Source: Octopus vulgaris
Taxonomy: Eukaryota
Direction of reading: 5' to 3'
NCBI GenBank assembly: GCA_951406725.2
Contig: OX597827.1
Location: 37,510,001-37,574,000 of the forward strand
DNA length: 64,000 bases
Shown here: positions 31,386-53,780 of the stretch, piece after piece
Position numbering within the stretch: position 1 is the first letter of the stretch
How the letters are laid out: the number at the start of each line of letters is the position of its first letter
Translations under genes and position numbers: made by a program
The notes under the pieces: model-generated
The model's input: the letters and a program-made list of their open reading frames with translations, nothing else
Databases searched by the model: none
Told to the model about the DNA's origin: nothing

Positions 31386-31466
<81 letters not shown>

Positions 31467-31468
31467 TT

Positions 31469-32276
31469 AATTAATTAAGGGTAGAAATTGATATTTATCA
31501 ATTAAAACCAGTGGTCTAGCATATTAAAAAAGAATCCGAAGATTAAAATATTTATATATACCAATTAAGGACTGAACACGAAAAGTGGACAGTCAACATG
31601 CTAGATATAGACGTCAAATCGCCATTCTCCACAAAAGATTATGTTCTCAAATCAAACTTATTGCTTTGGTTTTGTGCTGAGTTTGATTTGAGAACATAAT
31701 CTTTGTGGAGAATGGCGATTTGACGTCTATATCTAGCATGTTGACTGTCCACTTTTCGTGTTCAGTCCTTAATTGGTATATATAAATATTTTAATCTTCG
31801 GATTCTTTTTTAATATGCTAGACCACTGGTTTTAATTGATAAATATCAATTTCTACCCTTAATTAATTTTATATAAATAAATATGTTCTCTAACCGATAA
31901 ATTGACTGCTGCTAATTATTAGCTGCAGGCTGGTTTTTCGGGTCTCAACGCGCCAGAGTAAAGGCATTTGAAAGATACATTCGAATGTAATAGGTTGAAC
32001 TCCATGCACGCGACACTCCGGTATCGTTTTTGCATCTAGTCCAGCAAATTGTATTCATAACGGACCATGCTGATGAATGTTACAGTTATCCTTGCGGATA
32101 ATAATAACCGAAACTGATCAGTACATGGGTAATTATTTTATTTCGTATATTTTCACTTGTTTATTGCTTTGGTTTTGTGCTGAGTTTGATTTGAGAACAT
32201 AATCTTTGTGGAGAATGGTGATTTGACGTCTATATCTAGCATGTTGACTGTCCACTTTTCGTGTTCAGTCCTTAAT

Positions 32277-32278
<2 letters not shown>
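31469..32278 (+). mobile_element. Non-coding hammerhead-bearing element: ~190-bp inverted arm plus 1.23 copies of a 503-bp unit (PLE pLTR or retrozyme-like)
   Basis: IR 31469-31658 / 31680-31868; direct repeat 31658-31775 / 32161-32278 (1 mismatch); (TA)n on both sides. Confidence 0.85.
32064..32130 (+). ncRNA. Type I hammerhead ribozyme motif
   Basis: CCAUG-CUGAUGA-au[GUUA ca GUUAUCC uugc GGAUAAU aa UAAC]c-GAAA-CUGAUCAG-UA-CAUGG; predicted cleavage after GUA (32123). Confidence 0.8.
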
Positions 32279-32307
<29 letters not shown>

Positions 32308-32947: not shown

Positions 32948-33359
32948 AATACCAAACGAGTTCCCTATGGATACCGTATTTATTACAACGAGTGGCTTGT
33001 AAACGTATCTAACGATCGAAAGCGAGTTAGATACGTTTACAAGCCACGAGTTGTAATAAATACGGTGTCCATAGGGAATGAGTTTGGTATTTTATTTATT
33101 ACACACGAATAAACGACCATATTTTATTAACCCAATAACTAAATTCTTCACGTTTAGTTGTAACTTATGAATGACAAAAGTAGTGCCGTCACCGTGACCT
33201 CGGGTCATCACCATGTATTGACCAATCAGAAGCAGCGCTGTCACCGTGACCTCGGGTCATTACCATGGATTGACCAATCAGAAGCAGCGCTCGCAGTATC
33301 TGACATGTTAGATACCAAAAATATCTCAAAGTGTTCTCACTCACGTGTGTGTAATAAAT
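32948..33359. mobile_element. Non-autonomous DNA element (possibly Crypton-like): 144-bp hairpin, 52-bp tandem duplication, ttattacacac/gtgtgtaataa IR
   Basis: Hairpin 32948-33091; gtcaccgtgacctcgggtcat..gaccaatcagaagcagcgct twice at 33188-33291; superfamily assignment is from recall only. Confidence 0.55.
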
Positions 33360-43419: not shown

Positions 43420-44005
43420 TTGGCGAGCTGGCAGAAACGTTAACACACCGGGCGAAATTCTTAGCGGTATTTCGTCTGCCGTTACGTTCTGAGTTCAAAT
43501 TCCGCCGAAGTCGACTCTGCCTTTCATCCCTTCACGGTCGATTGAATAAGTACCAGTTACGCACTCGGGTCGATATAAGCGACTTAATCCGTTTGTCTGT
43601 CCTTGTTTGTCCTCTCTGTGTTTAGCCCCTTGTTGGTAGTAAAGAAATAGGTATTTCGTCTGCCGTTACGTTCTGAGTTCAAATTCCGCCGAGGTCGACT
43701 TTGCCTTTCATCCTTTCGGGGTCGATTAAATAAGTACCAGTTACGCACTGGGGTCGATATAATCGACTTAATCCGTTTGTCTGTCCTTGTTTGTCCTCTC
43801 TGTATTTAACCCCTTGTGGCTAGTAAAAAAATAGGTATTTCGTCTGTCTTTACGCCTGTCTTTAAGTTCAAATTCTGCCGAGGTCGACTTTGCCTTTCAT
43901 CCTTTCAGGGTCGATAAATTAAGCACCAGTTTTGTACTGGGTTCAATGTAATCGACTACCCCCTCCCCCAAAAAAATTTGGGCCTTGTGCCTAGGGTAGA
44001 AAAGG
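43420..44005 (+). mobile_element. SINE family B head-to-tail trimer
   Basis: Unit restarts at ggtatttcgtctg near 43650 and 43834. Confidence 0.9.
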
Positions 44006-51471: not shown

Positions 51472-52735
51472 CGAGGGACGTTCAATAAGTAATGCCCCTG
51501 ACCCACTTGCAGTTGTTTGATCTAGCTGAAATTGTGCATGTGCAATTATTTATATCTCTATAGATTAAGTGGCAAATTACAGCTAATTGTGGTTCTGATT
51601 TACAGGTGTTTGAACTGAGTCAAGTGTGAAATGGAGCCTGTTGAGTGTCGAGCAGTGATCCGGTTTTTGTATTTGAAAGGACGCACACCACGGGAGACTT
51701 TTGATGAAATGAAAGTAACTTATGGTGATGATGCCCCATCATATGACCTTGTAAAACGCTGGCATCGTGAGTTCAAACATGGTCGGAACTCTGTGGAAAC
51801 AGCTCCCATATCTGGACGCCCCCCTTCTGCCATTGATGAGGCATCTGTCCGTCAAGTTGAGGCTGCCATTTTGGAAGATCGACGCATAACTATTCGCCAA
51901 ATAGCCCATGAGGTCAAGATTAGTACCGGGTCTGTGGAAACTATCATTCATGACCATTTGCATATGCAAAAGGTGTCTGCCAGATGGATTCCCAGGTTGC
52001 CCACACCTTTCCAGAAGCAAGAACGCGTCGAGTGCTCGAGGATGAATTTGGAGATGTGTCAAGAAGATGAGTCAAAATTTTTCAAAAGACTGATTACACA
52101 GGATGAAACCTGGGTTCATCACTATGATCCAGAGACCAAAGCCCAGTCAATGCAGTGGAAACACCGTGACTCACCTCCTCCAAATAAGGCAAGGGTGCAG
52201 CCCTCCGCTGGCAAGGTCATAATCACAGTCTTCTGGAACCAGGACGGAGTAGTGATGACAGATTTCCTGGCAAAGGGTACCACAATTACAGGAGCCTATT
52301 ATGCTTCACTTTTGAGGAAATTAAGAGAAGCTATCAAAATCAAGAGGCGGGGTAAGATCAGCAAAGGCATCCTCCTCCTGCAGGACAACGCTCCGGTCCA
52401 CAACTCGCGTGTCGCCAGATCAGAAGCACAGGCGTGCGGCTATGAACTCCTGACCTTGCACCCTCTGATTTTCACCTCCTCCCAGCCATGAAGTTGTTTT
52501 TGAAAGGAAAGCGTTTCTCAGATGATGCAGCCTTGATTTCTGAAGTCACGTCGTGGTTGGAGGACCAAGCTGGGGTCTTCTACAAAAACGGTCTCCAGAG
52601 CTGCATCAAACAATGGGAGAAATGCGTAACTCAGGGTGGTTCCTATGTAGAAAAAGTCTCTAATAACTGTGCCAAGTTTCGTTGCTCTACTGCTATGGGA
52701 AGTGGGTCAGGGGCATTACTTATTGAACGCCCCTC

Positions 52736-52736
<1 letters not shown>
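51472..52736 (+). mobile_element. Full-length young mariner (irritans-like, DD34D)
   Basis: 37-bp TIR cgagggacgttcaataagtaatgcccctgacccactt (1 mismatch), TA target duplication, 1265 bp. Confidence 0.95.
51631..52655 (+). pseudogene. Mariner transposase, open except for one frameshifting deletion before PDLAPSD
   Basis: SGRP, ARWIPR, ITQDETWVHHYDPE, LLQDNAPVH; after GYELL another frame reads PDLAPSDFHLLPAMK..WEKCVTQGGSYVEK; HPPYS is missing. Confidence 0.92.
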
Positions 52737-52795
<59 letters not shown>

Positions 52796-52797
<2 letters not shown>

Positions 52798-52965
52798 GAC
52801 GGGCTTCTTTCAGTTTCCGTCTACCAAATTCGTTGGTCTGCCCGATCTTTGGTCGGCCCGATGCTACAGTAGAAGACATTTTCCCTAAGTTCCACACAGT
52901 GGGACTGAACCTGGAACAATGTGGTTGGGAAGCAAGCTTCTTACCACACAGCCACGCCTGCGCCT
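52796..52965 (-). mobile_element. SINE family A head half (tail remnant at 51426-51460), split by the mariner
   Basis: acgacgggcttctttcag...cacagccacgcctgcgcct. Confidence 0.8.
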
Positions 52966-53780
52966 ATATATAAAATAAATGGGAAAAAATGCATTGTAAA
53001 TAAACAACGTCAGATAAAAAACGCATGCGTATACTGACGTTTTCCCATAACGAATTAATGTATAACAATGCTCGATTATTAAACAAAACAGTGCAGTACG
53101 ACCAGCCATATGACCACCCATTTGGTTTATTAATCTGCATAATCTTAAACTTATTTTGCCGACGATTTCTAACATTTGAATTAATTGCGCATTAAAATTA
53201 TTCGAAGTGGAGAAAGATATATAACGCCTATATCATTCGAAAGAGAAAAAAATTCTACATAAACTGTAAAAAGTAAAATTATTTTATACAGTTTTGTTTA
53301 AAATATATTAATGAAGGTATAGAACTGTCATCAACGGCCTTAAACTTATTTTCGCCAGTGTAAATACATAAATGTAATACAGTATGTTAAGTGACGGTTT
53401 AATTCTTTATCTATTCGTTATCTATTCGTGTTACGCAACGGCAATGAAATCAATACAGTATATATTTACTTAGTTGGAGAATTGACGCAGATAAGGAGTG
53501 CCCATTGCTAGATAATAAGCAAAGATAGCTGCATTGACTAAAAAGCCAAACTATTTTCACCTGCTCTCTTTTGTTAAACTAAAAAGTCGTTCGGCAACTT
53601 TACCTTATGTTAATGTGTGACCTATTTCAAGTTGCTACAATAAGGCTGATGGGTGTCATACCGAAAAGATGCAACAAATTATTGCTATTGTTGTTGTTGT
53701 CTATTCCCTAGTCAACACTGGACAAGCAGACCTGTAATCAGAGACATTCCAGTTATGACCACTCTGTTTTATCCACAGAC

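Follow-up and report, generated by a model that had tools for sequence, protein, structure and literature searches.

A young non-coding, hammerhead-bearing element family of Octopus vulgaris, likely mobilised in trans by a Penelope-like element, whose copies end at two fixed sites

Animal non-LTR retrozymes have been described from mussel, coral and axolotl (PMC7229834), and vertebrate retrozyme families have been proposed to be non-autonomous derivatives of Penelope-like elements, PLEs (bioRxiv 10.64898/2026.07.22.740005). In both accounts the way in which animal retrozymes insert is a hypothesis drawn from co-occurrence and sequence kinship. A circular RNA template has been put forward for PLEs (PMC4209133) as well as for retrozymes (PMC7229834). 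The origin of the tandem and inverted insertions of PLEs, and of the tail found at one end only, is stated to be open by Craig et al. (PMC8557442). The Poseidon element PAc of the green anole, a PLE with a predicted dimeric protein, was found in vitro to cut both strands of an AT-rich target, to extend them, and to start at two internal RNA sites that define its tail (PMC11167929).

The copy considered here lies in a 64,000-nucleotide stretch of the O. vulgaris genome (contig OX597827.1, positions 37,510,001 to 37,574,000, forward strand; hereafter the window) and is a member of a young family of non-coding elements, to which three older families are related as sisters. Like the described animal non-LTR retrozymes, the octopus elements are non-coding, have a G+C content below 45%, carry one type I hammerhead per unit, form head-to-tail arrays, are predicted to fold into a self-paired RNA and share their genome with PLEs (PMC7229834); their units of 503–537 nt also fall within the 51–972 bp reported for retrozymes (bioRxiv 10.64898/2026.07.22.740005). 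Unlike those retrozymes, which form long arrays, most octopus copies are shorter than one unit and two-armed, and the available portions of the retrozyme accounts mention neither fixed end sites nor (TA)n targeting nor inverted arms; moreover, a parent pLTR was not found for the octopus family. With the EN+ PLEs (Neptune/Nematis, Naiad, Penelope) it shares 5′ truncation, partial tandems, a head-to-head inverted 5′ copy, a tail at one end only, a bias toward (TA)n and a terminal hammerhead with palindromic stem III, but it differs in having no ORF, a tail of 95 nt rather than 30–40 nt and a canonical C3-G8 hammerhead core in place of the U3-A8 core of the two abundant autonomous families in this genome, as far as the EN+ PLEs are covered by the available parts of PMC8557442, PMC3846280 and PMC4209133.

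The window copy comprises 1.23 units with one hammerhead (Table 1), and everything that an earlier note had seen in its letters stands. The terminal direct repeat is exactly 118 bp long with a period of 503 and a single mismatch (31716); the inverted copy of 31680–31868 at the 5′ side is nearly perfect, with one 1-nt gap in 190 positions and an unpaired turn of 21 nt; the single hammerhead in the unique part is of type I; no recognisable protein-coding ORF is present, the longest stop-free stretch being 54 aa in the doubled unit; and microsatellites lie on both sides. The 3′ end halts, as the note also had it, where the unit itself reads on into TATATA, within the tract TATATATA (31777–31784). 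The end of the inverted arm likewise lies at an internal tract, the sole other (TA)3+ run of the unit. Site-2 junctions differ in register between copies, and the (AATT)2 at this junction in the window copy may have arisen because priming slipped or added a repeat. In four runs, labelled as DNA or not labelled, the contigs stop at the (TA)n of the window copy and none spans the locus. Unit positions (u) are counted from window position 32124, the first base past the predicted ribozyme cut.

Table 1. Coordinates of the window copy and its features (window positions)
Feature	Position	Strand	Basis or remark
Left (TA)36 target microsatellite	31390..31461	.	sequence
Extra (AATT)2 at the left (site-2) junction	31461..31468	.	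sequence; likely slippage during site-2 priming (inferred)
Inverted arm, reverse complement of 31680-31868, outer end at putative priming site 2	31469..31658	-	sequence
Forward arm, 1.23 units, outer end at putative priming site 1	31658..32278	+	sequence
One 503-nt unit, 34% G+C, without ORF, predicted strong self-pairing (z -4.33)	31661..32163	+	
118-bp direct repeat, copy 1	31658..31775	+	
118-bp direct repeat, copy 2	32161..32278	+	
Outer helix (predicted), 5′ strand; partner 31884-31890; encloses both putative priming sites	31690..31696	+	
Inner helix, 5′ strand; partner 31814-31822; encloses site 1; conserved	31732..31740	+	
Putative priming site 1, TATATATA, read through in present round	31777..31784	+	
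Putative priming site 2, UA-rich, TATATA at 31870-31875, 95 nt downstream of site 1	31859..31884	+	
Type I hammerhead motif, palindromic stem III, predicted cut 32123/32124	32064..32130	+	
Right (AT)14.5 target microsatellite	32279..32307	.	

A DNA search of the 2.8-Gb genome returned 1,360 first-look candidates for the family, of which the 40 scored were 93–100% identical. A 17-nt motif beside site 1, at the 3′ end, has 1,911 exact matches (control, 0); the first 100 of these 1,911 correspond to 51 loci (the C1 sample, picked solely by the site-1 motif), which by extrapolation suggests a family of about 1,000 loci. Units are 501–512 nt long across the family, and tandems reach 5.3 units (L261), with seven spaced motif matches at C2:111.50 Mb. 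The three sister families are all older: F1b (76–85% identical), F2 (period about 530–537; 3,147 candidates) and F3 (period 533; 3,460 candidates). No continuation into an ORF was seen at any of 115 family loci or in any of 60 F2/F3 stretches, with flanks of 1.2–5 kb. The PLE matches in the flanks examined are separate insertions rather than parent elements, namely those beside L010, L025, L032, L045, L117, L129, L155, L156, L160 and L188, and the two autonomous families considered below, PLE-A and PLE-B, were ruled out as parents of the unit. Since none of these copies enters an ORF, this is a free non-coding family and not a pLTR attached to one, and the window copy can be classed with high confidence as a non-autonomous PLE or non-LTR retrozyme. 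The family also displays the PLE-type traits of 5′ truncation, partial tandem and inverted 5′ copy, with TA on both flanks in 39 of the 43 two-armed C1 loci and at the 3′ end in all 8 one-armed ones. The loci lacking an ORF and this insertion pattern support the element that had been supposed, non-coding and hammerhead-bearing, and likely mobilised in trans by a Penelope-like reverse transcriptase-endonuclease.

The hammerhead consists of stem I (ACCATG/CATGG), the core CTGATGA...GAAA and a palindromic stem III, with a predicted GUA cut. All five pairs of stem I show compensatory changes across four related families, and variation in stem II is also compensated among the hammerhead matches; the motif is thus conserved across related families, cleavage itself being a prediction from sequence. 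An Rfam search of the window did not report the hammerhead and gave only sub-threshold miRNA-like matches on the hairpin. The variant in the window has 73 exact matches and a younger variant dominates the family; the motif directly after the cut has 128 + 408 matches. The unit RNA is predicted to be highly self-paired, with 0/100 shuffles folding equally well. RNAalifold on 32 copies from four families kept two helices, hammerhead stem I and a 9-bp helix around site 1 (the inner helix of Table 1), in which 97% of cells pair and a compensatory A-U/G-C change separates families. For the latter, 0/500 shuffles reach the pairing value or the covariation score, a control that is inflated by the related sequences; the structure was also derived from the same alignment. 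A second alignment (15 copies) adds the outer helix enclosing both end sites, which is without covariation support because it is nearly invariant.

The ends of copies fall at site 1 (u157–164) or site 2 (about u240–264), which are the only (TA)3+ tracts of the unit, lie 95 nt apart and are held within the conserved RNA fold. The C1 sample comprises 43 two-armed, head-to-head loci and 8 one-armed loci; 42 of the 43 have one end at each site and the remaining one has an end elsewhere. Among 64 further loci, picked by similarity or hammerhead motifs, 42 are two-armed and 22 one-armed; of the two-armed loci, 32 use each site once and 10 have an end elsewhere. Pairs with both ends at site 1 or both at site 2 were not found among the 115 family loci, so that head-to-head copies whose ends both lie at the two sites use one of each in 74/74 cases, for which independent choice would give a probability of about 1e-22 to 1e-26. 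One-armed copies end at site 1 in 20 of 30 cases. As BLAST alignments extend into the (TA)n, wide site windows were used; one junction is common to L003 and L013, and the segmental duplicate L119 was excluded, while junctions otherwise differ between loci and therefore represent separate insertion events. In F2, six copies have one end at each site and one has both at site 2; F3 gave 14 one-each rows (two of them duplicates) and two rows with both ends scored at site 1, which are near-identical copies with an arm continuing to site 2. One sister-family locus (L176) is a complex exception resembling two site-2 ends. The earlier supposition that the unit is circularly permuted is not upheld in the sense of free permutation, as the ends are fixed at two sites in nearly all family copies, whereas its idea that the 3′ end lies at an internal UA tract able to pair with a (TA)n end is supported by the end mapping. 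Site-1 junctions merge with the internal tract, 41 of 53 reading on as pure TA, which makes a contribution of pairing probable; the ends of F2, F3 and PLE-B lie at equivalent positions although the TA match there is weaker, indicating that position in the fold probably sets the site.

As to the template, arms cross the ribozyme cut in 51 of 52 passages, which excludes a cleaved linear monomer. Arms of at least one unit occur at 14 of 51 loci, the longest measured being 5.3 units; together with the crossings, arrays of at least five units imply that the template is a circle or an uncleaved multimer, and the earlier suggestion of a template longer than one cleaved monomer holds. No excess of 5′ ends was seen at the ribozyme cut among 536 motif matches. 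Units within one insertion, both arms included, have the same length (within 1 nt) and differ mostly by changes private to a single unit, as suits a monomeric circle, although a homogeneous linear multimer would also fit. On these sequence features we give a circular RNA template about an even chance. All 30 bins have coverage in the contigs of four runs whose RNA nature is a guess, and the joint at which the 503-nt unit returns to its start also occurs in genomic tandems. A single expressed locus, considered from the dominant variant in two of the runs, was dropped because that variant is the most abundant genomic subfamily.

The alternative that survives best, with a probability somewhat short of even, concerns this step alone and is compatible with the rest of the model given below: priming would always take place on linear read-through transcripts of tandem loci, the hammerhead being kept for another step and no circle serving as template. 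There is a hotspot of arm 5′ ends at u25–75 (about window 32148–32163 and 31661–31695), immediately beyond the outer helix's 5′ strand, with a TATA-like stretch upstream; 11 of 108 arms stop at u25–65 after crossing the cut, more than expected (p 0.007, in a zone chosen post hoc). The excess could mark the 5′ end of a linear transcript, as this alternative would have it, or the loss of an RNA tether. Linear transcripts are also compatible with the normal insertion in vitro of hammerhead mutants of the anole PLE (PMC11167929) and with the report that only one of nine Xenopus retrozyme dimers was cleaved in vitro (bioRxiv 10.64898/2026.07.22.740005). However, arrays of at least five units would demand that every internal hammerhead stay uncut, units within one insertion share their length and differ mostly by single-unit changes, the hammerhead stems covary across four families, and circles have been shown for the mussel, coral and axolotl retrozymes (PMC7229834).

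For the insertion itself, the reading that we consider probable is twin priming, in which both ends of a cut (TA)n prime on one RNA, each at one of the two fixed UA tracts, and the two cDNAs join. A tandem locus would be transcribed, and its RNA would remain uncleaved or be cut by the hammerhead (probably as a dimer) and ligated into a circle of 503–512 nt. The PLE protein, probably a dimer, would bind the folded domain that holds both sites and cut both (TA)n strands; each DNA 3′ end would then pair with one UA tract and be extended upstream for 40 nt to more than five units. Microhomology, frequently at a spot that is short and self-complementary, would let the two cDNAs anneal, and filling in would give (TA)n-arm-arm-(TA)n; annealing of two same-sense cDNAs at such a spot may account for symmetric junctions, and failure of the second priming would leave a one-armed copy. 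The complete scheme, with a PLE dimer on one folded 500-nt circular RNA, two simultaneous primings at fixed sites and several turns possible, is offered more tentatively, as a possibility with the odds somewhat against it. In L1 twin priming, both target ends prime on one RNA and a 5′ inversion joined by microhomology results; priming at the second site is opportunistic there, and no overlap is seen between the arms. In the octopus family, by contrast, the sites are fixed, the arms overlap and either arm can be the longer. Telomerase primes by pairing of an internal RNA tract with the repeat at a DNA end. Athena and Coprina PLEs similarly have an internal RNA tract, next to a hammerhead, that pairs with the repeat at a DNA end (PMC8557442); unlike these and telomerase, the octopus elements would use internal (TA)n rather than telomeres. 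The model fits the in vitro behaviour of PAc, with its two internal start sites, AT-rich target and extension of both strands (PMC11167929). Against this stand the start sites of PAc, located in an AC-rich stem-loop that is not complementary to the target, and the dispensability of its hammerhead in vitro; for PAc the available text reports no pairing of strand with site (PMC11167929). In the octopus family both sites are UA tracts, with a different one used at each end.

The arms of the 74 copies with one end at each site bear on whether a second priming took place. In 28 of them, including the window copy, the arms turn within 30 nt; 25 are nested with a gap of more than 30 nt, and in the remaining 21 neither arm contains the other, 14 of these by at least 50 nt. 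It is improbable, in our estimate, that a single priming was followed by fold-back or template switch, one cDNA snapping back to copy itself and then joining the other end at a TA tract, as self-priming has been proposed for Penelope palindromes. The 28 symmetric turns would be explained equally well in this way and count against twin priming to that extent, the two arms are nearly identical, and palindromes at inverted junctions have been read as self-priming (PMC3846280). Fold-back of one cDNA, however, cannot yield the 14 clearly non-nested copies unless the centre was deleted afterwards (deletion at the palindrome centre could indeed make nested arms look non-nested), and the 25 wider gaps also speak against it. 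It offers no reason why the two ends never share a site, even though 20 of the 30 one-armed copies end at site 1, and its second strand would have to skip site 1 in the window copy yet halt there in most others. Twin priming by one RNP, one target end per site, explains both the non-nested arms and the constant use of the other site for the second end. The earlier statement that 1.23 units were copied before a template switch therefore fits the window copy, but across the family the 74/74 one-each ends and the 14 non-nested copies favour a second priming over a switch. Between paired arms 111 non-majority bases are shared and 98 differ (6,023 columns, 56 loci), and the sharing indicates the same template lineage. 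Stalling of arms at the partner's priming site was not significant in either comparison (0/16 vs 10/100, p 0.35; 5/25 vs 1/34, p 0.07).

It is more doubtful still that the ends are endonuclease cuts in a DNA intermediate, with a TA-specific GIY-YIG enzyme cutting the element's own TA tracts before or during integration. The end sites are indeed the unit's sole (TA)3+ tracts, and in the view of Craig et al. the one-sided tail arises when an endonuclease resolves the intermediate (PMC8557442); yet the equivalent positions used by PLE-B, F2 and F3 match TA only slightly, and the tail of the anole PLE maps to reverse-transcription start sites (PMC11167929).

The genome also contains autonomous PLEs that obey the same rule. 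PLE-A, found through the flank of a family locus, gave 19,549 candidates, of which 150 scored were 99–100% identical. Many copies hold a 784-codon frame with a reverse transcriptase (RVT_1, 263–450), a C-x4-C-x2-C motif and a GIY-YIG domain (688–775), which fits the C-terminal GIY-YIG and CX2-5CxxC linker of the Neptune/Nematis clade; the tandem period is 4.4 kb. By its sequence, PLE-A appears to be a very young and abundant family of Neptune/Nematis type; the homologues retrieved bear no clade labels. At one locus (L095, G000:C9:10670000-10679999, minus strand) two overlapping frames are seen: the upstream frame, without a Pfam match, has about 410 codons counted from the first ATG, and the other is the 784-codon RT-EN frame, in which conserved N-terminal motifs precede the first ATG. 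The two may be connected by a frameshift or a splice. Both PLE-A and PLE-B carry a U3-A8 hammerhead core, a variant already described (PMC4209133). Their two end sites are 33 nt apart and UA-rich in PLE-A, and about 50 nt apart with little UA in PLE-B. The one-end-per-site rule is obeyed by the head-to-head pairs of 17 of 18 resolved PLE-A loci (a count that leaves out L273 and L285, whose end calls are ambiguous, and a tail-to-tail pair in L066) and by those of 5/5 PLE-B loci. The PLE-A exception (L269) has the tail at both ends and, with L176, counts against twin priming.

When the tails of five PLEs or PLE-like elements were compared, that of PLE-A came closest to the non-coding families, with two equivalent short stretches: after the cut for F1 (0/300 shuffles) and before site 2 for F3 (3/300), the comparisons having been chosen post hoc. 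The four other tails reached 14/300 shuffles at best, and none matched the window's own subfamily. PLE-A is thus the best candidate for the partner, and the link, resting on these two short motifs, may hold or fail with roughly equal probability. In Chlamys, non-autonomous elements such as MRC1 have 3′ sequence in common with an autonomous family (PMC8557442), whereas the octopus family shares only short motifs, with PLE-A; the Chlamys elements, as far as covered there, mostly lack hammerheads, unlike the octopus family. The flanks of L160, L188 and L156 hold additional PLE families, which carry different hammerhead variants and all end in (TA)n. At L206:1890-2100 a much shorter hammerhead-bearing element lies between (TA)n runs as a near-perfect head-to-head palindrome; in L129 the 3′ part of this element also follows a PLE-B fragment as a fusion, and it is probably another non-autonomous PLE family. 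PLE-like RT-GIY-YIG proteins are filed under bacterial symbionts of bivalves (P0029, P0072, P0074, P0077, P0078, P0092), which probably reflects host DNA in those assemblies.

The insertion pattern of the octopus family is identical to that of the autonomous PLEs here, and only five PLE or PLE-like tails were compared in a genome that may contain many more, so that the copies might be ordinary solo pLTR fragments of an autonomous PLE yet to be found. We regard this as very unlikely in view of the missing ORF continuation at the 115 family loci and in the 60 F2/F3 stretches, the separate nature of the PLE insertions in the flanks, and a unit that closes on itself and forms arrays of up to 5.3 units. 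An assembly artefact behind the 190-bp hairpin, or a MITE or foldback DNA transposon, can be dismissed as extremely improbable: chimeric reads do generate inverted repeats and contigs do not span the locus, but the arms differ by an indel, two arms are present at 43 of the 51 sampled loci, which have individual junctions and obey a rule foreign to artefacts, and tandem units, 5′ truncation and a hammerhead are traits of retroelements.

Elsewhere in the window there are a transposase split over two frames (51619–52973), which we take to be Tc1/mariner-like and a similar copy of which flanks L010; a MITE-like inverted repeat at the edge of high-copy sequence (32948–33091; 66-nt arms, 91% complementary); and tandem arrays at 43466–43957 (period 184, 2.6 copies), presumably SINE-like, and at 33188–33291 (period 52, 2 copies).

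Published work already covers the inverted 5′ copy, partial tandems, the bias toward (TA)n, the model of a circular template and the view of retrozymes as non-autonomous PLEs, and because animal retrozymes have been proposed to be such derivatives the class of element is not new. A published account of this family, of a strict one-each count or of two-site twin priming by PLEs was not found, although Repbase, Dfam or supplements may list the family or the rule. Here the full PLE insertion signature is borne by a 500-nt non-coding RNA, and the rule of one end per site, common to the family and to autonomous elements, leads to a specific model, for which a small RNA and the young, intact 784-codon RT-EN frame of this genome provide the means of testing. 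If true, the mechanism of a PLE dimer on a circle would account at once for three general features of PLEs, namely the inverted pLTR, the tail at one end and the tandem arrays, and would show directly how animal retrozymes insert.
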